Source: an uncultured Gammaproteobacteria bacterium
GTDB taxonomy: Bacteria; Patescibacteriota; Patescibacteriia; Magasanikbacterales; GWA2-37-8
Assembly: GCA_964511375.1 (NCBI GenBank)
Contig: CAZEEW010000004.1
Span: 5,542-69,541 of the forward strand
Length of the DNA: 64,000 nt
Direction of reading: 5' to 3'
In this document: piece by piece, positions 1,455 through 49,535 of the stretch
How the letters are laid out: every line of letters begins with the position of its first letter
Numbering within the stretch: position 1 is the first letter of the stretch
The notes under the pieces: generated by a model
The model's database searches: none
The model's input: the letters and a program-made list of their open reading frames with translations, nothing else
Told to the model about the DNA's origin: nothing
Position numbers and translations under genes: made by a program

Positions 1455-1503
1455 ACTGTTCACCTTGCAAGGATAATGTCTAGTAGGGTATACTTCTTTT
1501 GTT

Positions 1504-2025: not shown

Positions 2026-3191
2026 TAAAACTTCGATATAAATTGTGGAAAACGAAACGAGGTCTTGCACCGGAAGCTCTGTTTAAAGAGAGTTTACGGA
2101 AAGAGCTAGATCGAGCCTGGGATCTGAAATATGGCTCGGTGCCTTGGTTCCAGTCGGCATGGTTCCGTTATGTCTTAGTACCTACGACGGCTGTATTTTT
2201 AGTTATTTTTGCAGGTACAGGTGCTTATGCCTATACTTCCCCAGAAGTAACTGAAGGAAATTTGTTATATCCAATTAAAACAGCAGTAGAAAAAGTGGAA
2301 GAAAAATTGAGTGTTACCCCTAAAATGAAGACTCAGTTTTATATCCGTCAGTTAGATCGTCGCTATCAAGAAGCCGCAGCTGTAGGAAAAAAGATTAAAA
2401 CTAAACCAGCTAACACTGTGATAGAAACCGTTAAGGTTCAGGCTGGATTAGTAGAGAAGATAAATCAAGTCGAGAAAAAACTGGTGGAACAAAAACAGGT
2501 AATTCCATCCAACACTTTAAATGAAGTGAAGTTAAAAGCGAAAATTCAAGATGTTCTAAAAGAGTCGGAAGTTAAAAAAAGATTAATTGTTATACCGACA
2601 ACAACGATTAAAATTCGTGAGTTGGATCCAGATAAAATGAAAGTTAATCAAAACGGAAAAGAGAAAACTGAATTAGAAAGAAAATTGGAAGAGGTGGGTA
2701 AAAAACAAACTGAGAAAAAAGAACTGAGAAAATTAGAATTAGAAAAAGTACAGGAAAAATTGTCTCCGGAAAAAATTGAGACTTCGACCAGTCTTTTGCC
2801 AAAGGTTGTAAAGCCCAGCGAGAAATTTAAGGAAATTTTAGAACGGGCCAAGAGTCTTTTACCAGTTTTGCGAAAAGATTGTAATAATTGTTACGCAGTT
2901 ACTTCCACTCCGGCTATTTTGAAAAATAGTATGCCGGTTAAAGTAGTTGTTCCGACAAGCACTAGGCGAATTTATCCTGTCCCTTCCACTACTCCAAAGC
3001 CAGTAACCTCTACCCAAAGCGTTTCCCCATATTACAAACCTGTCCCAAGTCCGATCGCCACCAGCACAATTAAGTATCCAACAACGACGATAAGAGTTTC
3101 GCCAACTACTACTCCTAAATACACTACCTCAACAATTTATCTTAAACCGATTACTACTTCAAGCACCTCCACTGTCCTTTATTCGAGATAA
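2022..3191 (+). CDS. membrane protein, putative anti-sigma-factor-like partner; K-rich coiled-coil region and S/T/P-rich C-terminal tail
   Basis: Start overlaps the sigma-factor stop (ATGA). One transmembrane helix (VPTTAVFLVIFAGTGAYAY). Low-complexity PTTT/STS-rich C-terminus. Confidence 0.4.
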   Translation: MIKLRYKLWKTKRGLAPEALFKESLRKELDRAWDLKYGSVPWFQSAWFRYVLVPTTAVFLVIFAGTGAYAYTSPEVTEGNLLYPIKTAVEKVEEKLSVTPKMKTQFYIRQLDRRYQEAAAVGKKIKTKPANTVIETVKVQAGLVEKINQVEKKLVEQKQVIPSNTLNEVKLKAKIQDVLKESEVKKRLIVIPTTTIKIRELDPDKMKVNQNGKEKTELERKLEEVGKKQTEKKELRKLELEKVQEKLSPEKIETSTSLLPKVVKPSEKFKEILERAKSLLPVLRKDCNNCYAVTSTPAILKNSMPVKVVVPTSTRRIYPVPSTTPKPVTSTQSVSPYYKPVPSPIATSTIKYPTTTIRVSPTTTPKYTTSTIYLKPITTSSTSTVLYSR

Positions 3192-3204
3192 ACAACCCTC
3201 GGTA

Positions 3205-3236
3205 TGTAAAAACTCCCTTAACGGGGAGTTTTTACG
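3205..3236. terminator. bidirectional rho-independent terminator (AAAAACTCCC-ttaa-CGGGGAGTTTTT)
   Basis: Perfect 9-10 bp stem flanked by an A-run and a T-run, sitting between convergent genes. The rnhA stop codon lies in the loop. Confidence 0.55.
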
Positions 3237-3631
3237 TTGTCTAATGTTTGGTTGACCAGTTTATCTGCTTCTTGGTTTTTGGCGCGGAGAACGTGGCGAA
3301 AATTTACTTTTTTAAATTGTTGTGACAGGTTATATGCTTTAACAAAAAGTTTTTGTAAACTCGGCTCACGGATTTTGTATACGCCATTCATTTGCTTCAT
3401 AACTAATTCACTGTCCATGACACAGTCTGCTTCTGTTGCGCCGAGCTCTCGGGCTTTTTCTAGTCCGGCAATTAAGGCGGAATATTCCGCAAAATTGTTA
3501 GTTTGTTCGCCTAAATATTCTCCAAAGGCCGCGATAGTCTCACCCTTGTCGTTTTTTATCACCACTCCAAGTGCTGCTCGACCAGGGTTTCCCCGGGATC
3601 CGCCGTCAGTATAAATAGTTAATTTTGACAT
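3218..3631 (-). CDS. rnhA: ribonuclease HI
   Basis: Motif IYTDGGSRGNPGRAALGVV...FAEYSALIAGLEKA. Start re-picked at MSKL (ATG at 3629-3631), 3 nt after the upstream stop. Confidence 0.8.
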   Translation of the reverse strand: MSKLTIYTDGGSRGNPGRAALGVVIKNDKGETIAAFGEYLGEQTNNFAEYSALIAGLEKARELGATEADCVMDSELVMKQMNGVYKIREPSLQKLFVKAYNLSQQFKKVNFRHVLRAKNQEADKLVNQTLDNVKTPR

Positions 3632-3635
3632 AAAA

Positions 3636-4979
3636 TTAGTACTCAAGTTGCCACAATCCAGTTTGTTTATTAAGTACACCGCTAAAATACAGAATACGTT
3701 TTTCGGTGTTAGCTACGGGGTTAGAAATAGTCTGTTCTAGTAAGGGCGTGTTTACTAAATAATAGGGGTGCATGATAGTGGTCTTTTCTGCCCAAACTAA
3801 TAAAAGAGCGTTGTATTCATCTAATGGTAATACTTCTTTTAAGGTTTCGCCCGATCGGGTCAAAAGCGCTGGCTCTTCACTGTAGTTAAAAGTTCGCAGT
3901 TCAGACGCAGTCCAGAATAGCCACCAGTCATTGTAGCGGGAGATCAGACTTTTATCAGCATTAAAGTTCAGACGACGACCAGAATATACAAGGGTTAGTT
4001 CAGAATTAGCTCCAGCCTTAATTAGAGCAGTATCCTTCTTTACACCGAGGATGCTTGGCTTACTACCTTCTGGTAGATCAACTTCTAGAGCTCGCTCAAA
4101 ATAACCATAGACATCGTGGACTAGTTCCCATTGCAAAGTGGTACTGCTAGGGCGGATTATCCAAAGTTCCGAATTGTCTAAATACCAATCAGCATATTGT
4201 TCAATGCTTAAAACGCGATCTTGTTTGGAAGTTAGGTTGTAGGCGTTAAGAGTATTGTTGTCTAAACTATAATATATCTCTCCGCCATTGTTGGTCCATT
4301 GGAATTTGATAATTGTGTCTCCAGGCGCACTTTGTAAGGTTTGGCGGTCAGAGGCATTTTCTGCATTGAAAATATTAACACTTTTAATGTTGTTCTTATC
4401 CTCACTTACGGCAAGCAGATTTTTATTTTTTGCCCAGACTAAATAAGGGCTCGAAGTAGAATTAAAAGTGATTAGTGTAGTATCTGAATTGTCTTCGGTA
4501 TTTCTTAGTTTAATTTCCGTGATGTTATTATTTTTTAAAGCATAAGATAGAAAACGGCCGTCATTAGACAAGGCTATTGCTTGAATATTCCCGTTTTGTA
4601 AAAGGAGGGGCTGTTTCCTGCGGATTAAATTTATTTCTTTGATATATACTGTTTGTTTGTTTTTAACTTCTACTTCTTTAAGCCAGGGCAGGTAATCATC
4701 TGCTTCTAAGCGAATAGTGTATTTTCCTGGTGTAATATTATTAAGTCTAATTGGTACTTTACTTTTTAAGCGAATATTATTTAAATAGGCGATAGCGGTT
4801 TCTGGCTCAACATCAATACTGATTGCGCCGGTCTCGCGTAGTAACCCCGCTTGCCAATCATAGCGGTAGCCAATGGAGTAGAGGATAACAATCGGGGATA
4901 TGGCGAAAAAAGCCGCTATAAACAAGCCGAGTAGAATTAGACGAAAGGGTTTGGTAAATTTGGCGCCTGGATACTCCAT
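3636..4979 (-). CDS. membrane-anchored PEGA-domain protein with a C-terminal beta-propeller-like (TolB-like) region
   Basis: N-terminal transmembrane helix. PEGA-like segment (ISIDVEPETAIAYLNN...ITPGKYTIRLEADDY). Repeated hydrophilic beta-strand-like blocks follow. Confidence 0.45.
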   Translation of the reverse strand: MEYPGAKFTKPFRLILLGLFIAAFFAISPIVILYSIGYRYDWQAGLLRETGAISIDVEPETAIAYLNNIRLKSKVPIRLNNITPGKYTIRLEADDYLPWLKEVEVKNKQTVYIKEINLIRRKQPLLLQNGNIQAIALSNDGRFLSYALKNNNITEIKLRNTEDNSDTTLITFNSTSSPYLVWAKNKNLLAVSEDKNNIKSVNIFNAENASDRQTLQSAPGDTIIKFQWTNNGGEIYYSLDNNTLNAYNLTSKQDRVLSIEQYADWYLDNSELWIIRPSSTTLQWELVHDVYGYFERALEVDLPEGSKPSILGVKKDTALIKAGANSELTLVYSGRRLNFNADKSLISRYNDWWLFWTASELRTFNYSEEPALLTRSGETLKEVLPLDEYNALLLVWAEKTTIMHPYYLVNTPLLEQTISNPVANTEKRILYFSGVLNKQTGLWQLEY

Positions 4980-6374: not shown

Positions 6375-7622
6375 ATGGATACATCACCTGTAAAGCAAAG
6401 AGCTCATCGGTACATTGGCGTATATCTTACAATCATTGTTTTTATCGTTGCTTTTGGCTTTGGTATTTTTGTCGGCCAAGGTTGGGCGATTAAAAAACAA
6501 ATATCTAATGCCGATGGTAATGTCGAAATAAGCAAGGTCTTAGATTTAAATCGCAAGTTAAACAAGAGTGACAGCGTTGAATTCGAACAATTTTGGGATG
6601 TTTGGGACCGGGTAAAGGAAAAATACGTTAAACAACCAGTTAAAGATGTAGATTTGTTTTATGGCGCCATTCAAGGGCTGGTCATGTCTTTGGATGATCC
6701 GTATTCAGTGTATTTGCCGCCACAAGAGGCCGCAGACTTTGCCGAAAGTTTATCCGGTGAATTTACAGGTATTGGCGCAGAGATTGGTATGAAAAAGGGC
6801 CAAATTATGGTTATTGCACCTTTGGATAACACACCAGCGCAAAGAGCGGGTCTTCGACCGGGGGATGCGGTAATTAGTATCAATGACGAAGATACTTTTG
6901 GCATGAATGTTAATACCGCCGTAGAAAAAATCCGGGGTGAGGCTGGCACTGAGGTAAAATTAGTTATTTACCGGGAAGGTCAACAAGAGCCAAAAGAGTT
7001 TAAGATTAAACGAGAGAAGATTAACGTACCATCTGTTCGTTTAACCATGCGTGAAGATAATCTGGCTTACATTCGTGTCATGCAGTTTAATGCGGATACG
7101 ACTTCACAGATGGATCGGGCGATTAAAGATTTAAAAAAGAAAAATGCCAGTGGGATAATTTTAGATTTACGTAGCAATCCAGGCGGGTATTTAGATGCCG
7201 CGATTGAAATGGGTAGTGAGTGGGTAAAAGAGGGGGTAATTGTAAGTGAAAGATCAACTGGTGGTCAAAAAAGAGACCATCGTTCTAGTGGTGTGCATCG
7301 TTTAGCTGGTATACCGACCGTGGTCTTAGTTAATGGTGGTTCAGCCTCGGCTTCGGAGATCGTGGCTGGTGCGTTAAAAGACCATAAATTAGCAATGATC
7401 GTGGGCGAACAAACTTATGGTAAAGGATCGGTACAAGATTTTGAGCTCTTCCCAGATGGTTCAGCACTGAAGATAACGATTGCTGAATGGCTAACGCCGA
7501 ATGGACAAAACATAAATGATCAGGGTATTGCCCCGGATGTTGAAGTAAAAGAAGACTATGCGAATGAGGCGGTGGGAGAGGACGTTGTGGTAGATAAGGC
7601 GGTGGAGATTTTAAAGAAATAA
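6375..7622 (+). CDS. carboxyl-terminal processing protease (S41 family, PDZ domain)
   Basis: N-terminal transmembrane helix. PDZ segment (GIGAEIGMKKGQIMVIAPLDNTPAQRAGLRPGDAVISIND). S41 core (LDLRSNPGGYL, GGSASASEIVAGAL...K). Confidence 0.85.
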   Translation: MDTSPVKQRAHRYIGVYLTIIVFIVAFGFGIFVGQGWAIKKQISNADGNVEISKVLDLNRKLNKSDSVEFEQFWDVWDRVKEKYVKQPVKDVDLFYGAIQGLVMSLDDPYSVYLPPQEAADFAESLSGEFTGIGAEIGMKKGQIMVIAPLDNTPAQRAGLRPGDAVISINDEDTFGMNVNTAVEKIRGEAGTEVKLVIYREGQQEPKEFKIKREKINVPSVRLTMREDNLAYIRVMQFNADTTSQMDRAIKDLKKKNASGIILDLRSNPGGYLDAAIEMGSEWVKEGVIVSERSTGGQKRDHRSSGVHRLAGIPTVVLVNGGSASASEIVAGALKDHKLAMIVGEQTYGKGSVQDFELFPDGSALKITIAEWLTPNGQNINDQGIAPDVEVKEDYANEAVGEDVVVDKAVEILKK

Positions 7623-7670: not shown

Positions 7671-8582
7671 TTAGATTCTTTCTTCCCAGTGGTTGTCTGA
7701 TTCAACTTCCAGTTCCAGGAATACTTTTTTGTTTCGTGCGGTAGACAATTCTTTTCGTGCGGCAATGCCAATTTCCTTCAAAGCTCGACCACCAGCCCCG
7801 ATAATCATCTTCTTGTATCGTTTATCTGAAGTTAAAATAACGGCATGTACCACCAAGATGTCTGGTTTATCTTCAATTTCTCGTACTTCGACATGAGTGC
7901 TGTAGGGTACTTCTTGCCGTAAAGCGAGGAGAATTTTTTCACGGATTACTTCGGCCATCCAGAATTTTTGGTCAATATTCGTTAATTGTTCTGGTGGGTA
8001 AAGTGGGTCGCCCTCTGGTAAGAGTTCAAAGATTTTCTTTTTTAATGGCTCAACATGTCTTGCGTGTAAGGCAGATAATTCAAAAATAGCGGCAAAGTCA
8101 TCGGACATTTCTTTGTAGTTATCTAAGAATTCTTTTTCTCGTTCAGCGAGATCAGACTTGTTAATAACCATTATTTTTGGCACAGAAGCTTTGCGTAACA
8201 AAGACAGGATAAATCTTTCTTCAGCACCAATGGCTTTCGTCGGGTCAACAACATAGATAATTAAGTCAATATCATGTAAGGCTTCTTCAACTCGTTCGGT
8301 CAGAATACCACCGAGGTTGTCATTACTAGATTTAAAAATACCTGGGGTATCAACAAGTACAGCTTGTCCTTCTGGTGCGTTAACAACACCATGAATAATG
8401 TTTCTGGTGGTTTGCGGTTTGTGGGTTACGGCGGCCAGTTTGGTGCCGACTAAAGTGTTAAGCAAGGTTGACTTACCCACATTAGAGCGTCCGACCAAAG
8501 TAACCATTCCAGATTTTAATTGTGGAGCCTGAGCGGCTTTCTCTGGAAGGTTGCCGGTAGAGATTTTTTTAGTTTTAGGCAT
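7671..8582 (-). CDS. era: GTPase Era
   Basis: G1 motif GRSNVGKST and G3 motif DTPG. C-terminal KH domain. Start re-picked at MPKTKK (ATG at 8580-8582). Confidence 0.85.
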   Translation of the reverse strand: MPKTKKISTGNLPEKAAQAPQLKSGMVTLVGRSNVGKSTLLNTLVGTKLAAVTHKPQTTRNIIHGVVNAPEGQAVLVDTPGIFKSSNDNLGGILTERVEEALHDIDLIIYVVDPTKAIGAEERFILSLLRKASVPKIMVINKSDLAEREKEFLDNYKEMSDDFAAIFELSALHARHVEPLKKKIFELLPEGDPLYPPEQLTNIDQKFWMAEVIREKILLALRQEVPYSTHVEVREIEDKPDILVVHAVILTSDKRYKKMIIGAGGRALKEIGIAARKELSTARNKKVFLELEVESDNHWEERI

Positions 8583-8697: not shown

Positions 8698-9144
8698 TTG
8701 TTTATGAAAGTCATATTATTACACAAAGTACCAGGCGTCGGAGATATTGACGATGTCGTTGAGGTGGCCGAAGGTTATGCCCGCAATTTTTTGTTTCCAA
8801 ACCACTTTGCCGTACAAGCTTCTAACCAGTCAGTGCACCAAAAGGAAGAGCAAGCCAAGAAAAAGGCTCGTATAGCTGAACGGGATTTGCAAGAGCAACA
8901 ATCCCTGGCCGCAAAATTGGACGGGTTAGAAGTAGAGCTGAAAGAGAAAGCCAACGAAATCGGTTTGCTATATGCAGCGGTGGGCCCGCAAAAGATTTCC
9001 GAAGTGCTAAACAAAATGGGTTTCAAGGTAGAAAGAAAGCAAATTTTGACACCGCAGATTAAATCAATAGGAGAACACAAAGTCACGGTTAAACTACGAC
9101 ATGGTTTAGAATCTGAATTCACCATCACTGTCTCTAAACAATAG
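8698..9144 (+). CDS. rplI: 50S ribosomal protein L9
   Basis: MKVILLHKVPGVGDIDDVVEVAEGYARNFLFP. Start may instead be at 8704. Confidence 0.85.
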   Translation: MFMKVILLHKVPGVGDIDDVVEVAEGYARNFLFPNHFAVQASNQSVHQKEEQAKKKARIAERDLQEQQSLAAKLDGLEVELKEKANEIGLLYAAVGPQKISEVLNKMGFKVERKQILTPQIKSIGEHKVTVKLRHGLESEFTITVSKQ

Positions 9145-9176
9145 CCTCCTCGTCTCTACGAGGGGGTTTTTGTTTT
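9145..9176 (+). terminator. rho-independent terminator after rplI
   Basis: CCTCCTCG-loop-CGAGGGGG stem followed by TTTTTGTTTT. Confidence 0.6.
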
Positions 9177-9238: not shown

Positions 9239-10864
9239 ATGCATACTAAGTATATCTTTGTTATTGGAGGTGTATTGTCTGGAGTAGGTAAGGGAGTAAC
9301 GGCAGCATCAATTGGAAGAATGTTTAAGAATCGGGGTTTGAAAGTTTCGGCGATGAAAATTGATCCATATATTAATGTTGACGCGGGTACAATGAATCCT
9401 GTTGAACACGGAGAAGTGTTTGTAACAGATGATGGCTATGAGACAGATCAAGATATTGGTAACTATGAAAGGTTTCTCGACACAGATATTTTGTCAGACA
9501 ATTATTTAACGACTGGTCGTGTTTACGAAAGCGTTATTCACAAAGAGCGTAGCATGTTTTACAAGGGTCGCTGTGTGCAGGTTGTGCCTCATATCCCGCT
9601 CGAAGTCGTCGATTCTATCAAACGGGCATCAGCCCAAGCTAAAGCTGATGTGATGATTATAGAAATTGGTGGTACCGTTGGCGAATACGAGAATATTCTG
9701 TTTTTAGAGGCAGCGAGAATGATGAAATTGGATAACCCGGAAGATGTAGCTTTTGTACTGGTAAGTTATATGCCAGTCCCGGGGCATATTGGTGAGATGA
9801 AAACCAAACCAACTCAGCATGCGGCTCGGGCTTTAAATAATAGCGGCATTCAACCGGATTTTATTGTGGCACGGGGTAGTACGGAATTAGATATCCCACG
9901 TCGTGAAAAGTTAGCATTTTTCTGTTGGTTAAAATCTCGTGACCATGTTATTTCCGCTCCAGATGTCGAAAGTATTTATGACATTCCCGCTGTATTTGAA
10001 AAACAACGATTTGCGGAATTATTGTCAAAAGATTTGCATTTTACTTTGCCTAAGGTAGTAGATAAAAAATGGGATAATTTTGCCAAGAAACTTAAGTCAG
10101 CTAAAAAGGTGGTTAAAATAGCTGTTGTTGGTAAATATTTTGGGACTGGGAAATACACCTTATCTGATTCATACATATCCGTAATTGAGGCAGCTAAGCA
10201 TGCGGCTACACATAATGGCGCACGCACAGAAATGACCTGGGTAGATTCTGAGGATTATGAGAAGGACCCGAAGAAAGTAAGTGAATTGGCTGATTATGAC
10301 GCCGTTATTGTACCAGGTGGATTTGGGTCACGTGGCGTAGAGGGAATAATGGTAGCAATTCGTTATGCCCGTGAAAAGCAGATTCCTTACCTTGGTCTTT
10401 GTTATGGTATGCAGTTGGCTATGGTAGAGTTCGCCCGTAATGTTTTGGGACTCGAAAAAGCGAATGCTTTTGAAATAAATCCAAAGACGCCAGACCCAAT
10501 TATACATATTAATGAAGAACAGGCAGCTAATGTCAAGAATCAACGTTATGGTGGTACATTAAGGCTCGGGGCTTACCGCTGTACACTGAAGAAAGGTAGT
10601 AGGGTGCAAAGACTGTATGGCCAAAAGGAAGTAAGTGAGCGTCACCGCCACCGTTTTGAATTTAATAATGATTATCGTAGTGTTATGGAAGAGAAGGGTG
10701 TCGAGTTTGTTGGTATTAATCCAGAAAAAAATTTAGTTGAGATAATTGAACTTAAAGATCATCCGTATTTTGTGGGTAGCCAATTCCATCCGGAATTGAA
10801 GTCTCGGCCGCTTCATCCGCATCCGTTATTCATGGGACTGGTAAAGGCGGCTTTGAAGAAATAA
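9239..10864 (+). CDS. pyrG: CTP synthase
   Basis: N-terminal synthetase domain (GGVLSGVGKGVTAAS, EHGEVFVTDDGYETDQDIGNYERF). GATase domain (GLCYGMQ). Confidence 0.93.
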   Translation: MHTKYIFVIGGVLSGVGKGVTAASIGRMFKNRGLKVSAMKIDPYINVDAGTMNPVEHGEVFVTDDGYETDQDIGNYERFLDTDILSDNYLTTGRVYESVIHKERSMFYKGRCVQVVPHIPLEVVDSIKRASAQAKADVMIIEIGGTVGEYENILFLEAARMMKLDNPEDVAFVLVSYMPVPGHIGEMKTKPTQHAARALNNSGIQPDFIVARGSTELDIPRREKLAFFCWLKSRDHVISAPDVESIYDIPAVFEKQRFAELLSKDLHFTLPKVVDKKWDNFAKKLKSAKKVVKIAVVGKYFGTGKYTLSDSYISVIEAAKHAATHNGARTEMTWVDSEDYEKDPKKVSELADYDAVIVPGGFGSRGVEGIMVAIRYAREKQIPYLGLCYGMQLAMVEFARNVLGLEKANAFEINPKTPDPIIHINEEQAANVKNQRYGGTLRLGAYRCTLKKGSRVQRLYGQKEVSERHRHRFEFNNDYRSVMEEKGVEFVGINPEKNLVEIIELKDHPYFVGSQFHPELKSRPLHPHPLFMGLVKAALKK

Positions 10865-38300: not shown

Positions 38301-38402
38301 AGTGGAGTATATATTAACCTATTTCAACCAGGTACCGCAATAGAGAACAAAGACTAATTTGGGTATATCCTGTGTACAGGATTGGGGATTGGGGACAGGG
38401 CT

Positions 38403-38446: not shown

Positions 38447-40546
38447 ATGGAAAGAAGAAAAATAAAAGAACTGGGAGCGATTGTTTTTTTGGCTTCCTTT
38501 GCCTATTTTTTACTGACCATATATACCAACCTGGGTTTGGCCCTGGTTTTTTTATTCCTGTATTTTGGTTTAACTGGAAGATGGTACCGGGATTACTTAA
38601 TTAGCATTTTTCGCCTTGGCCGGTTGGGTACGACTTGGGTGGTTGGTGTTTTTTTAAGTTTGTTTGTTTTTGTTTCACTATCTAGCCCCTGGGTGTTGTT
38701 TTTTCGTTACACAGCCCCCGAGATTAGTGTGGTTTTTCTTTTGAGTGGCCTTTTGGCTTGGTATCTAAGAACTTATATTGTTAAGAAAGGAATATCACTA
38801 GAAAATAATATCTCTACTGAAAGCAACTCGTGGCAATTCATGCCTGGAAAGGTAATAAGCTTCTGGGTATATATTGTGGTTTTTGCTGTTGCAACTTATA
38901 TTTTGCAAAACCGACTTGGCGATGGAGTAGTGAATAGTCCGTGGCAAATAATACAAGAGGAATATATTTACGTTTACGCGTTGGCGACTTTTGTTTTGTG
39001 TTTAAATATTTTATCTAAATTACCATCACGGCAAGTTCTTTTTCTCCTCATTCTTCATACTTTTCTAACCGTTAGCTATCTACCTTTAACTCATGTTTTA
39101 ATCTATGGCGCCGACTCCTGGCGACACATGGCGACGGAGGCGCAGATTCTCGAGTCCGGACGGATTGCGCTGAAAGATTTTGGGAGTGGCTTTAATGCGA
39201 TCGTGAACGCTTTAAATCCCGGTCGTTTCTCTTACGCCTGGTTTTGGGGGCTGGGGGTAGTAGTAGCCAAACTCACGGGTGGAACTTTAATTGAGGTAAA
39301 TAAATGGTTAGGACCATTGCTTTTCACAATTGGTTTCCCGGTTCTGCTTTTTGCTTTCTTGAAAAGTTGGTTTAAAGAAGAAAGATTGCCCTTGCTCCTA
39401 GTTTGGTTATCTCTTATTTTTTTCGCTTTTCAAGTCGGTGGGGCGTTTACTTTACCTGTCAATACTGGATTTTTATTTTTTTTGGTTTTACTGATTTTAC
39501 TCACAAAACATTTAGACAACCCGCAGCCGGGACGGAAATGGTTTTTGGGCTTGCTCGGTTTCTTTAGCCTTTTTGGATATTTGGTGTACTTTATTTTATT
39601 CTTTTTAGCTTGGGGTATAATGGTCCTTACGAAAAAGAGCTGGAACGCTGGCAAAAAAAACGTGTTAATAATAGTGGGTGCGGGTATTTTAATTCCGTTT
39701 TTTGAGTTAGTGTTTAATTACAGCGATGTTTCGAAAATCAATTTATTAGGACAGATAAAACAATTGGTTGGTAATTTTACAGCTTATTACTTGGCAACTG
39801 GTCCTCGGCAGCACGACATTTTGACTGGCAACATTCTTTTTAACCAGACACCAAGCTACGCCTATGTGGGAAATTTTTTATTAGAACACAAACCATGGTT
39901 GGTAGCGGTCGCAATACTAGTTTGGGCCGGTGTAGCTTGGGGAGTTAGAGAATATTTTAGAAAGAAAGAAAGTCGTGGGATCGGAATATTGTTTTTAGGG
40001 GTGTTTGTAAGTTTGCTGATCGGAAGATACTTTTTAGTGGGTGAGCAAATTTTGTCTCGGCGCTTAGATTTAGTATTTGCACTCGGTGCAGTGTTTTTTA
40101 TCGGGTTCACTGTGAAGAGGATTTTTTCTCGTTACCAGATTGCCGAAAAAGCAACATCGAGACTGCTTGCAATTTTAGTAGTATTTATTTTTTCTTTGGC
40201 TATTACGGCGTCATATACCCTGGGACCAGATACTAATACTGTATCCTTGACCGGGTATCGCAATATGGAAGTAGTTTGGGACCAGGAAAAGGAAAACGAG
40301 AAACACTGTGTTATAGCCGATACTTATCCTTTGCTAGCCTTAGAATTCATTTCTAAAAAAGAAATTGTGGGCGGGGGATTTCCAATGAACGCGTATTTTG
40401 CCCAGCTAGAACGCGTGGCGCTATGGCAGGAGATTAAAAACAAAGGCTATTTAACCAAAGAAGAACTAGAGAAAGCCAAGGAACTAACCGGAGCAGGAGA
40501 GTGTCATATTGTCGGTGGTTCGCTTGATCCATGGTTTGGCAAGTAG
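38447..40546 (+). CDS. large polytopic membrane protein, possibly a GT-C-type (ArnT/PMT-like) glycosyltransferase
   Basis: At least 12 hydrophobic helices and a C-terminal soluble domain. Start re-picked at MERRKIKE with promoter and SD. Family call is low confidence. Confidence 0.4.
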   Translation: MERRKIKELGAIVFLASFAYFLLTIYTNLGLALVFLFLYFGLTGRWYRDYLISIFRLGRLGTTWVVGVFLSLFVFVSLSSPWVLFFRYTAPEISVVFLLSGLLAWYLRTYIVKKGISLENNISTESNSWQFMPGKVISFWVYIVVFAVATYILQNRLGDGVVNSPWQIIQEEYIYVYALATFVLCLNILSKLPSRQVLFLLILHTFLTVSYLPLTHVLIYGADSWRHMATEAQILESGRIALKDFGSGFNAIVNALNPGRFSYAWFWGLGVVVAKLTGGTLIEVNKWLGPLLFTIGFPVLLFAFLKSWFKEERLPLLLVWLSLIFFAFQVGGAFTLPVNTGFLFFLVLLILLTKHLDNPQPGRKWFLGLLGFFSLFGYLVYFILFFLAWGIMVLTKKSWNAGKKNVLIIVGAGILIPFFELVFNYSDVSKINLLGQIKQLVGNFTAYYLATGPRQHDILTGNILFNQTPSYAYVGNFLLEHKPWLVAVAILVWAGVAWGVREYFRKKESRGIGILFLGVFVSLLIGRYFLVGEQILSRRLDLVFALGAVFFIGFTVKRIFSRYQIAEKATSRLLAILVVFIFSLAITASYTLGPDTNTVSLTGYRNMEVVWDQEKENEKHCVIADTYPLLALEFISKKEIVGGGFPMNAYFAQLERVALWQEIKNKGYLTKEELEKAKELTGAGECHIVGGSLDPWFGK

Positions 40547-40616: not shown

Positions 40617-43043
40617 ATGTTTGGAAGAAAACTGCCAGAAAATCCAATTGGCATCAAAGGAGAAGAATTAAAACGATACGAACCAGCATTGGAAGTGCTA
40701 AAGCAGGAGCGGGCTGTGGTTAAGGAATTGGCCGAGGTGTATCCGCTTTACCAGGAACTTCTTAAGAACAACACAATAAAATTTGTTGCCGAACAGGGGA
40801 ACGAGGCGACCGAGCGGACAGTTTCGGTTTTGGGCGAGGAATGGGAAGATTGGTTGCGGGATGATTATCTTCGATTGGATGCCTGGTCTAGAAAGTATCT
40901 TTTGGAAATGGATCCCGGTTTAGATAGTGTGCCAGCCTTTAAAGAATTAGAGCGGATGTCTGTGCATCTGGAGCAATTGAAAGAACTAGCGGCAGATGAC
41001 GCTTCCAAGAAGCGCGAAGGGGTAGGTAGCCGGTTAAGAGAAAATTTGAGGAAACCGAACGGGGGCCAAGCTGGCCACGAAGTTATTGTTTATCCCACGG
41101 CAGATGAGCACTTAGAGGCTTCAAGGTGGGATGACTTTCTAGCTTTTTTATCTAGTAATAAGCAAATTAAAGACGGGAAGGATGTTGAATCAAGGCCTAT
41201 CTGGTGGAGAAGGGGACTAAGGAAGGCGGGGAAAGACTATAAAAAAGAAAGACTGCCGCAAGAACAATTGCGCCAAGCAGTAGCAGAACATATTACTAAA
41301 ATTGCCACTGAACAACGCACTGACATTGAAAGAAAAAATCTTTTAGAGCGAATCCAACAATTTCGGAAGTTGATTCGGATACTTAAGCGCTGGCAGGAGG
41401 TTTTATTCACTGATCAATTGCAAGATTCTTCGTTAAGAGGAGAAAGCCCCTATACTCCTTCACAAGTTAGTATAGTCAGAGAGTGTAACAGAGAACTAAT
41501 GGACCACTTACGAACGCGTGTTAATACTTTTGTGCGTCCGATAGAAGCTAACGAGAGAGGGCCTTTGCCGATCGATAACACTGTCGTCGAATTTGCCGAA
41601 GAGCTCGATGCAAAAGTAAGAGATAGTTTGGATATTCGAGAAAAGATTCGTGTTTTAAAACAGGACTTAGAGGAGTTAGCACATGGTTTAAATTTAGAAG
41701 TGCAAGAGTTAAAACAAACAGCTGAAGGTTTAGTTTGGACGTACCAGGGTTTAAGTGAAGGAGAGCAAGATTTGACAGAAAGAAAAGACAAATTGAAGCC
41801 TTTAGTGACTGGTATTGGCCAGGCACTGGAAAAAGTAGTTAGTGCTTATGGAGACGAGAAGAGTGGAGTGGTGGGCGTCCTGGACCGTCTTATGAAGATT
41901 TTGTCTGAAGCGGAAAAGCGTAATGGTCAAGCCTTTAGGCAAGTTGAGGCAATGGCCAGAGAATTGGAGGGAGCCAATCTCCGCTCTTTATATTTTCAAG
42001 AATTTGATATCACCCTACAGGGATTGCGTCAAGCGATTAGTGACGCACGGGAGTTTATCCGAGACAGAGAACAAAGGCGGTTAGCAGAAAAAGTGTTGCC
42101 AGCGCCAATGACCAAAGTTATAGACGCGGATATGGTTGATGTACGGCCTAATAGTCGTGAGGGCATACTAGATCCCGGAGAGGTCTATACAAATAACGAG
42201 GAATTACGTGTGGCGTTAGAAGACAGAGGTGGAGAATTTGGTTTGTACGCACCCTTAGTTGATTATGCGATGTTGCCACCGGAATTTTCCAAAGAGCATT
42301 TGCGGATTTTTAAAAATTATCTTGGTAAATTAGATGCATCCAGAGTACCACAAGTAAAAAATTGGGAACAGTATTTTGAAATGATGTACCCCCGATACCA
42401 AAGACCAGAAGACACACAAAGAAATTTAGTTGCTCATCGTCCAGACTGGTGGTATGAACAAGCAGATGGGAGTGATTTTTATGATAAAGAAACTTGGGGT
42501 GAGGCTTACAAACGGTCGATACAAGAAGAGTCTGAGAAATTGAGTGATAGGGTATTTCTTACTGAGAAAATACAAAAACCAAATTATACCGATGGGAGCA
42601 AACAGTATGGATCTAAAGACCATCAAGACGCGCCGCAAGACGTGCTTTTACCAATCATTCAAGAAGTATTAGGGCCAGACCATAATCGGTTTGGTAATAC
42701 GTGGGATGAAGTCAACTGGGTAGCGGAAAAAGTAAAAGAGAAAATCATCGCTGAATTGCGTTCGGCAGGGCTACCTGTCCCGAAGTTTGATATTGTGATA
42801 ACACCTGCGATTATTTCTAATTTAGAAATGATATCCAGAAATAGAGAAAATTCACAGACTAATACTTATGAGTGGACTTCAACTCCATTATTGAAAAAAG
42901 ATGGTGGTGATTACGGTTCTCGCCTGGTGGTTGGCCGCTCGGGGAAAGGTGGTGCCGGTTATATCGGCAACCTTCAACACAACGCTAGGTCAGACTCGTT
43001 GGGGTTCCGCCTCTCAGCGACGTTCAATAATCATAAACCTTAA
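40617..43043 (+). CDS. large (808-aa) soluble charged protein of unknown function
   Basis: Long uninterrupted ORF. No transmembrane or signal segment. No recognisable catalytic motif. Confidence 0.6.
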   Translation: MFGRKLPENPIGIKGEELKRYEPALEVLKQERAVVKELAEVYPLYQELLKNNTIKFVAEQGNEATERTVSVLGEEWEDWLRDDYLRLDAWSRKYLLEMDPGLDSVPAFKELERMSVHLEQLKELAADDASKKREGVGSRLRENLRKPNGGQAGHEVIVYPTADEHLEASRWDDFLAFLSSNKQIKDGKDVESRPIWWRRGLRKAGKDYKKERLPQEQLRQAVAEHITKIATEQRTDIERKNLLERIQQFRKLIRILKRWQEVLFTDQLQDSSLRGESPYTPSQVSIVRECNRELMDHLRTRVNTFVRPIEANERGPLPIDNTVVEFAEELDAKVRDSLDIREKIRVLKQDLEELAHGLNLEVQELKQTAEGLVWTYQGLSEGEQDLTERKDKLKPLVTGIGQALEKVVSAYGDEKSGVVGVLDRLMKILSEAEKRNGQAFRQVEAMARELEGANLRSLYFQEFDITLQGLRQAISDAREFIRDREQRRLAEKVLPAPMTKVIDADMVDVRPNSREGILDPGEVYTNNEELRVALEDRGGEFGLYAPLVDYAMLPPEFSKEHLRIFKNYLGKLDASRVPQVKNWEQYFEMMYPRYQRPEDTQRNLVAHRPDWWYEQADGSDFYDKETWGEAYKRSIQEESEKLSDRVFLTEKIQKPNYTDGSKQYGSKDHQDAPQDVLLPIIQEVLGPDHNRFGNTWDEVNWVAEKVKEKIIAELRSAGLPVPKFDIVITPAIISNLEMISRNRENSQTNTYEWTSTPLLKKDGGDYGSRLVVGRSGKGGAGYIGNLQHNARSDSLGFRLSATFNNHKP

Positions 43044-43071: not shown

Positions 43072-43476
43072 ATGTCAGACTGTATTTTTTGTAAAATTAT
43101 CGCCAAGGAGATTCCGAACTACGCGGTGTATGAAGACGAACATGTTTTGGCCTTTTTAGACATTCATCCACATGCTAAAGGGCATACGGTTATCATCCCC
43201 AAAACGCATGTAGATAATTTTGCGGCGTTGGAAGAACAGGAATATACTTTTATTTTAAAAGCAGTTAAAATTGTGATGAATAAGTTGGACAAAGCCTTGC
43301 AGCCAGCTGGATATAATGTGGGTTGGAACGAAAAACCAGCCGGCGGCCAAGTGGTTCCTCATTTACATGTTCATGTAATGCCCCGTTATGAAAACGATGG
43401 TGGCCGTAGTATGCACGCGATAGTTAACAATCCAGGAGACAAGAGCGTGGAGGAAGTTTTTAAACTTATCGTCTAA
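43072..43476 (+). CDS. HIT-family (histidine triad) nucleotide hydrolase
   Basis: MSDCIFCKII start and HLHVHVMP triad. The ORF-track extension upstream was rejected. Confidence 0.85.
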   Translation: MSDCIFCKIIAKEIPNYAVYEDEHVLAFLDIHPHAKGHTVIIPKTHVDNFAALEEQEYTFILKAVKIVMNKLDKALQPAGYNVGWNEKPAGGQVVPHLHVHVMPRYENDGGRSMHAIVNNPGDKSVEEVFKLIV

Positions 43477-43479
43477 TCT

Positions 43480-44037
43480 ATGCCCCGATATATCAAAAAA
43501 AAATCTGAAGAAGTATTGTCAGAAAATCCGTGGTGGAAATATAAACATGATAAATACACTTTTCCCGACGGAAGTGAAGGCGATTATTATTACGGCGAAA
43601 ACAATGGTAGCGCAATGGTCATTCCGATTTTGGATGATGGGCGACTTGTATTAGTTTCTTTGCACCGTTACCTAAGCGATAAGCCAAGTATCGAATTTCC
43701 TTGTGGCGGTATAGAGAAAGATGAGGTGCCACAAGCTGCGGCTTTCCGCGAGTTGAGAGAAGAAACCGGCTGGCAGTCTGACGGCTTATCTAAGGTAGGC
43801 AGTTTTATAGCTTTAAACGGATTGTTCAAAGATGAAACCCATTTATTCGTGGCCAATAATTTGGAACAAATAAGTGGGCCATCAAGTGAACCGGGGGAAG
43901 TCACAGAAGTAATGTATCGCCGGCCGGATGAATTAGAAGATATGATTAAGCGTGGGGAAATTTGGGATGGGCAGACATTGGCAGCGTGGTCACTAGCAAG
44001 AGAATTTATTCGATCTAACACTTTTAGAAATTCGTAG
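43480..44037 (+). CDS. NUDIX hydrolase
   Basis: Nudix box GGIEKDEVPQAAAFRELREETGW. Confidence 0.8.
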   Translation: MPRYIKKKSEEVLSENPWWKYKHDKYTFPDGSEGDYYYGENNGSAMVIPILDDGRLVLVSLHRYLSDKPSIEFPCGGIEKDEVPQAAAFRELREETGWQSDGLSKVGSFIALNGLFKDETHLFVANNLEQISGPSSEPGEVTEVMYRRPDELEDMIKRGEIWDGQTLAAWSLAREFIRSNTFRNS

Positions 44038-46990: not shown

Positions 46991-47018
46991 TTAAATATTT
47001 AGGATTTTTGTGTATAAT
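46991..47018 (+). promoter_or_regulatory. promoter candidate (TTAAAT-16-TgTATAAT) implying a leaderless or near-leaderless start at 47026
   Basis: The -10 ends 7 nt before the ATG at 47026. Confidence 0.35.
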
Positions 47019-47025
47019 ATATACC

Positions 47026-49041
47026 ATGGTAGATAATAACGAGGAACAAAAACCAGTGGACTCTTTTAAAACTGATCCCAACGTCAATTTTTTTGGTTTA
47101 ACAAATTTTCGGAATCAGTATCGGAAATTTGGCATTAAACTAGATGATCGTCGCCGGCACATGTACATTGTGGGTAAAACGGGCATGGGAAAAACTACCA
47201 TGCTTGAGAACATGGTTTTAAACGATATCTATGCCGGACATGGTGTTGGGTATATTGATCCGCATGGTGATACAGCAGAGAAGATCATTGACTTTATTCC
47301 GTCTTGGCGGATGAATGACGTGGTGTACTTTAATCCGGCGGATTTAGATTATCCGATTGGTTTTAATATTTTAGAAACCATTAATGCTTCGCAAAAACAC
47401 CTTGTAGCGTCGGGTCTGATGGGTGTGTTTAAAAAGATTTGGCCAGATGTTTGGAGCTCAAGAATGGAGTATATCTTAAACAATACCATTTTAGCTTTGT
47501 TAGATTTTCCGGGTACGACTTTATTAGGCATTAATCGAATGTTGGCAGATGAAGATTACCGGCGTCGAGTAGTAAAAGCAGTTAAAGATCCGGTGGTTAA
47601 ATCTTTCTGGCAAACGGAGTTTGCATCCTATAGTGAAAAGTACCAACAAGAAGCAGTCGCACCTATCCAGAATAAAATTGGTCAGTTCTTGTCTGCTTCA
47701 GTTATACGTAACATTGTGGCTCAGGTAAAGTCCCGTATTAATATACGGGAGATAATGGATAACAAGAAAATTTTTATCATGAACTTGTCAAAAGGTAGAA
47801 TCGGTGAAGACAATTCTCGTCTTTTGGGAGGCATGCTCATCACTAAACTCCAACTATCTGCTATGGAACGTGTCGATATGCCAGAACTAGATCGCAAAGA
47901 TTTCTTCCTGTATGTTGATGAGTTTCAAAATTTTGCAACCGAAAGTTTTGCTAATATCTTGTCCGAAGCGCGAAAGTACCGTTTAGGATTGGTCTTGGCT
48001 CACCAGTACATGGAACAGTTAGATGAAAAAGTACTGGCGGCGGTTATCGGTAACGTTGGTACCATGATTACATTCCGTGTTGGTTCAACGGATGCGGAAA
48101 TACTGGCCAAGGAATTTGCACCGATTTTTGTGGAAGAGAATTTAGTAAATTTACCGAAGTTTAACGTTTATTTAAAACTCATGATTGATGGTGTAGCCTC
48201 GCGACCGTTTAGTGCTCTGGCGATGCCACCAATTAAATTGTCTACCACTGGCAGCGCTGATAAAGTCATTCGTGTTTCGAGAGAACGTTATGCTGTGACC
48301 AGAGACAAGATTGAAGACAAGATTGCACGCTGGAGTGGAATGGTTATTCTAGATGAAGAGGGAAATCCGACTACCGATGATCCGGATGAGGAATTTGATG
48401 ATGGACCAAAGAAAGAAGAAACCGTTCCAACTAAGAGCCCGCCAGTAGCTAAAAAGAACGAGTCTAAAAAAGAAGAAACGTTCAAGCCGATTGTAGTTGA
48501 GTCGGCTAAAGAAGAGAGTAGCTTACCGGTAGCGGAAGAAATATTTAACATACTAATGGCAGAAGATAAGCCAGTACAGTTGCCTAACTTAGAAAGGGCA
48601 ATGATTGATAAACCGAAAGATGATCAAGCAAAGCCACCACGGAGGATAAATAATCCTGTACAGCAACCATCTCTAACTAGTAATCCAGATATTGTTAAGA
48701 AACGTAAGAGAAAAAGAAAAAAGAAAAGTGGGGGAGGGGGCGGGCAAGGCTTTACTAATTCAGAGCCGGTTTTACTGGTAAAACCAGAAACCAAAGGTAT
48801 TTCTTTGAACGATCTTAAGCCTCTGCCTAAAAACGAAGAAAAACCACAGCATGTTACTCGAGAGGAAGATTTAAATAGTACAGCAAAACAAGAGGAAACA
48901 CTAGGATTTTTGAAGTCTAGTCAAGACAGCAAATTTGAACCGCTAAAATTGAGCGAGCAAAACGATCCAAATATTCATGATAATAGTGGTCCAAAGACCG
49001 TACCTAAGGGTAAAATTGAAGCAATCAATGATGATAAATAG
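47026..49041 (+). CDS. VirD4/TraD-like (type IV coupling-protein-type) P-loop ATPase with a ~250-aa K/E-rich disordered C-terminal tail
   Basis: Walker A VGKTGMGKTT. Walker B FFLYVDEFQNF. No N-terminal transmembrane segment. Tail carries KKRKRKRKKKSGGGGGQG. Alternative TTG start at 47008. Confidence 0.6.
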   Translation: MVDNNEEQKPVDSFKTDPNVNFFGLTNFRNQYRKFGIKLDDRRRHMYIVGKTGMGKTTMLENMVLNDIYAGHGVGYIDPHGDTAEKIIDFIPSWRMNDVVYFNPADLDYPIGFNILETINASQKHLVASGLMGVFKKIWPDVWSSRMEYILNNTILALLDFPGTTLLGINRMLADEDYRRRVVKAVKDPVVKSFWQTEFASYSEKYQQEAVAPIQNKIGQFLSASVIRNIVAQVKSRINIREIMDNKKIFIMNLSKGRIGEDNSRLLGGMLITKLQLSAMERVDMPELDRKDFFLYVDEFQNFATESFANILSEARKYRLGLVLAHQYMEQLDEKVLAAVIGNVGTMITFRVGSTDAEILAKEFAPIFVEENLVNLPKFNVYLKLMIDGVASRPFSALAMPPIKLSTTGSADKVIRVSRERYAVTRDKIEDKIARWSGMVILDEEGNPTTDDPDEEFDDGPKKEETVPTKSPPVAKKNESKKEETFKPIVVESAKEESSLPVAEEIFNILMAEDKPVQLPNLERAMIDKPKDDQAKPPRRINNPVQQPSLTSNPDIVKKRKRKRKKKSGGGGGQGFTNSEPVLLVKPETKGISLNDLKPLPKNEEKPQHVTREEDLNSTAKQEETLGFLKSSQDSKFEPLKLSEQNDPNIHDNSGPKTVPKGKIEAINDDK

Positions 49042-49223: not shown

Positions 49224-49535
49224 ATGCCTTTTGGAACTGATAGGCAAATGTATTCCGTAGACTTGTCTTGTGCTAAGTGTGGCGCTCACATCAGTGAACT
49301 CCCATTTCAGCCAAGTGGTGACAGGCCAGTGTATTGCTCTGATTGCAATCGCGCCTTCCGCCAGAGCCGTGCTCCAAGAAATGGTGGTGGTCGTACAAAC
49401 GGCCCTCGCCAGATGTTTCAGGTCAATTTGACCTGTGCAGACTGCGGAACTGCCATCAACGAGCTTCCTTTCCAACCAGATGGAAGCAAGCCAGTTTACT
49501 GCCGCACCTGCCTTATGGCAAAACGTGCTGCGTAA
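49224..49535 (+). CDS. tandem-duplicated C4 zinc-ribbon protein (two CxxC-x17-20-CxxC modules)
   Basis: Internal repeat VDLSCAKCGAHISELPFQPSGDRPVYCSDC / VNLTCADCGTAINELPFQPDGSKPVYCRTC. Confidence 0.6.
   Translation: MPFGTDRQMYSVDLSCAKCGAHISELPFQPSGDRPVYCSDCNRAFRQSRAPRNGGGRTNGPRQMFQVNLTCADCGTAINELPFQPDGSKPVYCRTCLMAKRAA

Follow-up and report, generated by a model that had tools for sequence, protein, structure and literature searches.

The stretch analysed here (hereafter the window) comprises 64,000 nucleotides (nt) of contig CAZEEW010000004.1 from GCA_964511375.1, the assembly of an uncultured Patescibacteriota bacterium, and our subject is one large gene within it whose product is related to the variable proteins of diversity-generating retroelements (DGRs). 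The complete coding sequence occupies 40617..43043 on the + strand, begins with ATG and encodes a protein of 808 amino acids (aa; 93 kDa, isoelectric point 5.5). A first-pass annotation made from the letters of the window had placed the open reading frame (ORF) exactly here, and a second, independent gene call, on the Logan assembly of run SRR5011273, returned the same 808-aa product. An open frame of 808 codons would arise by chance with a probability of ~3e-23 at the base composition of the window, and the codon-position GC content of the ORF is like that of neighbouring genes. The protein is acidic and very hydrophilic, with 123 K+R residues, 140 D+E residues and a grand average of hydropathy (GRAVY) of -0.74. 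Its maximum 19-residue hydropathy is only 1.16, indicating that it has no transmembrane (TM) segment; no signal peptide is present either, and the protein is thus probably cytoplasmic. These values bear out the earlier description of a soluble, highly charged protein devoid of TM and signal segments.

Searches with the whole protein and with segments of it yielded nothing above threshold in Pfam, NCBIfam, PHROGs, PADLOC or PDB sequences, and no relatives in PHROGs, PADLOC or IMG/VR; PADLOC gave nothing beyond a 28-residue match at E 1e-3. The first-pass verdict of "no recognisable domain" is correct in that no curated domain model matches any part of the protein. Pfam matches to Sec8_N, FAO_M, VMAP-M8 and Trp_dioxygenase were all sub-threshold and were rejected. 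HEPN (PF05168) was rejected as well, scoring 13.9–17.1 bits against a cutoff of 22, with no His in residues 401–500 to make up the Rx4-6H motif that is needed. In the N-terminal region the weak HEPN and Sec8_N matches are the only ones.

Exhaustive phmmer comparison with 1.84 billion cluster representatives found 85 matching representatives, 48 of them below 1e-30 and the best at E 4.6e-87. All but one of these matches (84/85) cover residues ~462–808, the remaining one being a spurious coiled-coil match. They define a conserved C-terminal family domain at residues ~520–805 (42174..43031, + strand) that is common to Patescibacteria DGR variable proteins. A word-indexed search with the full protein had returned the protein itself only, and a re-query with residues 501–808 recovered the family; in the first search, candidates drawn by the charged, helical N-terminal half had probably crowded out the rest. 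The domain family, with its 80+ clusters, has no match in Pfam, NCBIfam or PDB sequences. Its sub-families share just 35–50% protein identity, and an alignment of 18 members contains 40 invariant columns, all of which the window protein keeps. The closest relatives (proteins P0002 and P0086, at 53–54% identity) include the target in an active-looking DGR locus. An AlphaFold2 (AF2) model of the C-terminal domain, built with a multiple sequence alignment, reached a predicted local distance difference test score (pLDDT) of 81 and a predicted template modelling score (pTM) of 0.84.

On the first reading given to this protein, it was a true orphan whose function would be specific to its lineage and have no tie to known systems. 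The silence of every curated library speaks for it, as does the N-terminal half, residues 1–~505, which has no homolog among the 1.84 billion representatives; for that half the claim of no detectable homology stands. It does not stand for residues ~520–805, where 80+ homologous clusters, 40 invariant positions and homologs that are demonstrable DGR targets refute it, so that a true orphan is extremely improbable as a description of the whole protein. Nor did any confident match lead to a housekeeping family, the outcome that the annotation had considered fatal to its view; the confident match is instead to an uncurated accessory family of the DGR literature.

Family members are modular in front of the shared domain. 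Most homologs are stand-alone proteins of 300–400 aa, and the others (570–990 aa) carry unrelated N-terminal regions, often a MoxR-type ATPase (AAA_5). Proteins P0007, P0101 and P0102, from loci L134 and L135, which have no local DGR cassette, place ~4 tandem repeats of ~30 residues (…EGVIIQKGDELLLNGKELLYKG.F…) before the C-terminal domain, a further case of N-terminal modularity in the family.

The assignment to DGRs rests on the surroundings of these homologs. Forty-two further loci were fetched and all were scanned for template repeats (TRs) with an A-tolerant search, in which each base of the variable region (VR) was recoded as "that base or A". Repeat analysis showed the final ~110 nt of each homologous gene to be repeated 270–400 nt downstream, just ahead of Avd. 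In L002 (a 209-kb contig from the Joint Genome Institute, JGI) and in L004/L005 a bAvd gene directly follows the homolog, and in L004/L005 reverse transcriptase (RT) ORFs come next. The VR of P0002 differs from its template by zero non-A mismatches across 111 nt, and that of P0106 by four. TRs with 0–3 non-A and 5–19 adenine mismatches per 102 nt were found in L002, L004, L127, L128, L129, L131, L137, L149, L157, L159 and L163; L003 also carries a TR, bringing VR/TR pairs to at least 12 distinct loci, in the homologous 34 codons. In loci lacking a TR the best matches stayed at the background level of 24–38 non-A mismatches per 102 nt. Avd and/or RT genes stand next to the homolog in ~17 distinct loci. 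A full-length RT of ~350 aa is present in six distinct loci (L127, L128 with its duplicate L142, L131, L145, L149 with its duplicate L164, and L159), and split or truncated RTs occur in L004, L002, L003 and L137.

The templates are rich in AAC codons and encode G-N-R-L-x-V-G-N-S-D-N-G-G-A-G-Y-V-N-N-D-H-R-x-N-R-W-N-N-R-G-F-R-L-S. Positional entropy of 51 distinct family VR peptides follows template adenine at codon positions 1–2 (Spearman 0.90, p 6e-13). Adenine-only mismatches between TR and VR, the adjacent Avd and RT genes, and entropy that tracks template adenines identify the family as DGR targets, and the C-terminal domain, as judged from these sequence patterns, is the variable-protein scaffold of a Patescibacteria DGR lineage.

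Several of these loci show further peculiarities. In L002 (9264–10008) just 91 aa remain of the RT, from its N-terminus, but each of the three VRs there agrees with the TR at 0 non-A mismatches over 102 nt. This implies either very recent loss of the RT or the action in trans of another one. L003 (3096–9445) holds three paralogous targets with 100% identical 114-nt VRs (4155–4268, 6762–6875 and 9059–9172) and a single TR (9332–9445) of 86% identity to them, along with an exact 300-nt duplication (3096–3395 = 8000–8299) and an AbiEii/DUF6922 pair between its copies; the identical VRs could reflect recent segmental duplication, gene conversion or assembly collapse. The family VR at L141 (4727–4828) has an in-frame stop codon (…RRGN*WDN…), which may mean that the target was inactivated by mutagenesis or that the consensus derives from a mixed population.

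Some paralogs are fused to AAA_5/MoxR ATPases and stand beside CobT_C/vWA-like and transglutaminase-like proteins (L002, L003, L004). A CobT_C (vWA-associated) protein of 690–750 aa comes directly downstream of the RT, or of what is left of it, in a pair of unrelated loci, L003 (10118–12367) and L004 (7453–9534), which suggests that the CobT_C protein and the AAA_5-fused targets form a conserved MoxR/vWA-type accessory pair in this candidate phyla radiation (CPR) lineage of DGRs. By analogy with such loci, the window protein might serve as sensor in a cytoplasmic system of conflict or defence, in which the lectin-like domain, fixed or variable, would detect an invader or host molecule and the helical module would signal or act as effector. 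MoxR-vWA ternary systems with DGR-diversified FGS or C-type-lectin (CLec) sensors have been read as conflict systems (Kaur et al., PMC7159879; Dore et al., PMC10907252), and a probably cytoplasmic protein, free of signal peptide and TM segment, would suit that role. Within the window, however, no AAA_5/MoxR, CobT_C/vWA or transglutaminase homolog was found at E<=0.01, and there is no VMAP component or peptidase partner; the neighbours are housekeeping genes, and PADLOC offers nothing past the short match given above. Moreover, Dore et al. (PMC10907252) see no association with conflict domains for CPR/DPANN DGRs within RT clade 5F. A conflict-sensor role for the window protein is therefore unlikely.

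The window gene ends in the same element as its relatives. Its VR-equivalent of 34 codons (GSRLVVGRSGKGGAGYIGNLQHNARSDSLGFRLS; 42915–43016, + strand) is homologous, position for position, to VRs that are paired with a TR, and it corresponds to the Gly-rich C-terminal segment that the first-pass annotation had picked out. All frame residues are in place, with two scaffold deviations against a family range of 0–4. Adenine makes up 15.7% of the window VR, as against 32.4% of the whole gene, 4.9–17.6% of diversified VRs and 20.6–24.5% of templates. This depletion is consistent with past diversification, a Gly/Arg-rich composition also contributing to it. Six residues of the window VR (K11, I17, L20, Q21, H22 and N23) are absent at those positions in the 51 family VRs and are unreachable by adenine substitution of the usual template codons.

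The 3' junction of the VR (42999..43022, + strand), at the position expected for an initiation of mutagenic homing (IMH) signal, reads CTCTCA|GCGACG in the window and CTC[T/G]CG|GT[C/T]GT in 54 others. Five of the six near-invariant core nucleotides are changed, a state unique among the 55 sequences, and the protein tail is "ATF" where 54/56 members have "VV". In the other VR and TR sequences a synonymous third-position G at the junction, one of the nucleotides changed in the window, is kept in 54/54 cases, an indication of a cis-acting element at the site of the IMH homing signal. The IMH signal is known to sit at the 3' boundary of the VR (PMC5758913).

Loss of a cassette and of the junction element might also be read as decay, with the gene a pseudogene remnant of a former DGR target, and RT decay is indeed common in the family (L002, L003, L004, L137). 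Against this, the 808-codon frame is intact, all 40 invariant residues are kept, the two scaffold deviations of the VR lie inside the family range and codon-position GC is like that of the neighbours. A decaying pseudogene is very improbable on these grounds.

A cassette was sought throughout the 64-kb window of the 86-kb contig, with 42 kb on the upstream side of the gene and 21 kb on the downstream side. The VR is not repeated there. The best A-tolerant match had 24 non-A mismatches per 102 nt, which is background, or 8 in 45 nt as against 0 in positive controls, so that the window holds no TR. Neither RT nor Avd was found in it by tblastn with five full-length family RTs and two Avds (best E 0.5). 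Synteny tells the same story from the side of the closest DGR-linked homolog: in L002 (1173–10931) a 9.7-kb DGR island, comprising three targets, a transglutaminase-like protein, TR, Avd and the RT remnant, stands between dnaK-dnaJ and a sigma-70/DUF5667 pair. In the window, the gap between dnaJ (351–1454) and sigma-70 (1504–2025) measures 50 nt (1455..1503) and is empty of a DGR island. The dnaJ/sigma-70 junction appears as an insertion or deletion hotspot.

We interpret the window protein as a member of the Patescibacteria DGR variable proteins, probably a retired target with fixed specificity, fused to a novel helical N-terminal module, and assign this reading a probability of roughly 0.7. 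Retirement is the most likely state because the 64 kb hold no cassette, the 3' boundary element has been wiped out and adenine mutagenesis could not have given rise to several of the VR residues. The relatives show the last 34 codons being rewritten from the nearby TR: an error-prone RT randomises adenines and gives a hypervariable ligand-binding surface on a conserved frame. The scaffold carrying that surface would be a divergent C-type-lectin/FGE-like fold, judging by its motifs, by where the VR sits and by weak fold hits. With TR, Avd and RT gone from the 64 kb, its junction element destroyed and VR residues beyond the reach of adenine mutagenesis, the window gene appears to have become separated from the retroelement. 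A binder once selected by hypermutation would now be fixed and evolve by ordinary mutation; ligand binding by its VR surface is likewise expected from the family.

The main competitor on the same evidence is an active remote target, hypermutated in trans by a distant cassette of the same genome, its TR and IMH* having diverged together with the VR. DGRs can act on non-adjacent or remote targets (PMC5758913; PMC10907252), and three family loci, L134, L139 and L160, have no cassette within 5–10 kb and still keep the junction. The adenine depletion of the window VR also falls within the diversified range, and the visible part of the genome is 64 kb. Yet the window junction is changed at 5/6 positions though it is near-invariant across sub-families of 35–50% identity, the cassette-less loci included, and the six unusual VR residues are unreachable from family-typical template codons. 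The VR of the Logan assembly is identical to that of the window, which argues weakly against ongoing mutagenesis since both probably come from the same sample. We consider a remote active target doubtful.

Several points nonetheless weigh against retirement and against the proposed fold. A cognate TR could lie beyond the window, in the remaining ~22 kb of the contig or in the rest of the genome, given that non-adjacent targets are documented (PMC5758913) and that L134, L139 and L160 have no local cassette either. The junction and the odd residues would be accounted for equally well by a cognate DGR that has itself diverged, IMH and TR included. On the structural side, the CLec fold is at most putative: hhalign against BPP-1 Mtd gave a probability of 0.3%, and Foldseek returned no match below E 0.5 for the C-terminal model. 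Single-sequence AF2 of the full protein (pLDDT 37) was uninformative on the N-terminal half.

PF03781 had no match at E<=10 in the query or in the 18 family members, profile searches of PDB sequences found no relevant match, and a profile of the last 135 residues had 0 matches. The weak Foldseek matches include Mtd (five variants) and TaqVP, at E 2.4 or higher, and also list the FGE-domain enzymes EgtB, SenA and OvsA. The last ~85 residues have the predicted order beta-alpha-alpha-beta-beta-(VR loop)-beta.

The N-terminal region, residues 1–~505 (40617..42131, + strand), is predicted to be all-helical. It has no internal repeat and no likeness to the N-termini of other family members. Residues ~327–432 (41595..41912, + strand) form a heptad-like, coiled-coil-type segment, the source of the single spurious phmmer match: P0084, an MCP-signalling-like coiled-coil protein (E 9e-5, aligned at 328–447), was rejected because the match was judged compositional. 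From its sequence we take the region to be lineage-specific, helical and partly coiled-coil. It would stand in the place held by MoxR-type AAA ATPases or other variable modules in paralogs, and presumably gives oligomerisation, scaffolding or output, the weakest step of the proposed mechanism.

A fuller version of the retirement reading is possible, and we offer it tentatively, with the odds somewhat against it. The window protein may be a domesticated DGR-evolved binder, in which retroelement and homing signal have been lost and the scaffold now sits on a new ~505-residue module, as a cytoplasmic protein of fixed specificity encoded in a core operon on the chromosome of a CPR bacterium with a reduced genome. 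Its scaffold would then represent a new structural variant of the C-type lectin, marked by an extra sub-domain and by the want of any significant PDB neighbour.

The gene is set among housekeeping genes (DnaB, RecR, L21, HIT, Nudix, AMMECR1, uridine kinase and MnmA). The DnaB groups at 90% or more with a protein of a "Patescibacteria group bacterium", which assigns the window to a Patescibacteria genome. Upstream, on the + strand at 38447..40546, lies a polytopic membrane protein, called at 699 aa (the longest ORF, of 724 aa, starts at 38372), which has no match in Pfam, NCBIfam or PDB sequences; the earlier label "GT-C-like" is not backed by any family match. Downstream, the HIT (43072–43476, E 7e-27) and Nudix (43480–44037, E 7e-15) genes that the first-pass annotation had recognized form a housekeeping pair on the + strand (43072..44037), starting 28 nt beyond the stop codon of the 808-aa frame. 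The membrane protein, HIT, Nudix, DUF2207, DnaB and RecR occur in 0/46 family loci, and the co-occurrence with the upstream membrane gene that had been suggested as a check is accordingly not seen in any of the 46.

Elsewhere in the window, 47008–49041 encodes a TrwB/VirD4-type coupling-protein ATPase (PF10412, E 5e-11) with a K/E/P-rich, low-complexity C-terminal tail of ~250 residues, and 49224–49535, upstream of a peroxiredoxin gene, encodes a small protein made up of a tandem pair of treble-clef zinc fingers (PF23477, E 3e-25). Every 2-kb bin of 1–64000 has a positive GC skew, cumulative skew rises monotonically and most genes are on the + strand, suggesting that the whole window belongs to one replichore, in which + would be the leading strand.

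Placing the C-terminal half in this family removes a false orphan and gives the protein a concrete evolutionary identity. At the nucleotide level the gene would document an uncoupled DGR target, with the scaffold intact, the VR adenine-depleted but drifting, and the homing junction destroyed. DGR surveys built around an adjacent RT and TR overlook retired targets, and such targets may commonly lie behind large CPR proteins without domains. A curated model of the 80+-cluster family would improve the annotation of Patescibacteria, and the CTC[T/G]CG|GT[C/T]GT junction could serve as a simple marker for whether a family member is still DGR-addressable.

Comparison with described systems shows where the window protein fits. 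The solved DGR CLec proteins, Mtd and TaqVP, resemble it in carrying a C-terminal VR as putative binding surface, the predicted beta-alpha-alpha-beta-beta-(VR loop)-beta order fits their fold, and their TRs are rich in AAC codons, as in the family of the window protein. They differ in that the family domain, which has an additional alpha/beta sub-domain on its N-terminal side, is ~2x a minimal CLec domain, and that there is no significant sequence or structure match. The solved proteins are, moreover, a phage tail fibre or a lipoprotein, whereas the window protein is probably cytoplasmic. The family C-terminus, E-W...[R-L-x-V-G-x-S]...G-F-R-L, is presumably a parallel to W-E-W...R-V-x-R-G-G-S...G-F-R in FGE-sulfatase/SUMF1. 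No profile match to FGE-sulfatase/SUMF1 (PF03781; the "FGS" of Kaur et al. 2020) exists in the family, however, and a catalytic role is not implied. MoxR-vWA ternary conflict systems resemble the paralogs that have an AAA_5/MoxR fusion and CobT_C/vWA-like neighbours, but an ATPase is missing from the window protein, and MoxR, vWA and VMAP from the window.

The closest likeness is to the variable proteins of CPR DGRs. CPR DGR targets (RT clade 2) typically show no recognisable TM or conserved domain, and uncharacterised domains overlapping the VR have been proposed as new C-type-lectin variants (Roux et al. 2021, PMC8144416). According to Dore et al. 2024 (PMC10907252), in a summary of Paul et al. 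2017, the architecture seen most often among CPR targets joins a CLec domain to an AAA ATPase. Six CPR VR clusters were left as "unknown VRs" by Wu et al. 2018 (PMC5758913), among which UVR4 was linked to a Midasin/AAA domain. The window protein shares with the CPR variable proteins a homologous C-terminal domain of ~290 residues, a 34-codon VR at the extreme C-terminus and the frame G-R-L-G-S-GG-G-R-L; they too have no Pfam domains, signal peptide or TM segment, and their N-terminal region is modular and variable. It departs from them in standing among housekeeping genes, with its junction destroyed and no TR, Avd or RT in 64 kb, and in its unique helical N-terminus of ~505 residues, which replaces the AAA_5/MoxR ATPase or short helical leader of the others. 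The kind of protein, a CPR DGR variable protein, is already known; what is modestly new here is the unique N-terminal half and the sequence evidence of uncoupling from the retroelement.

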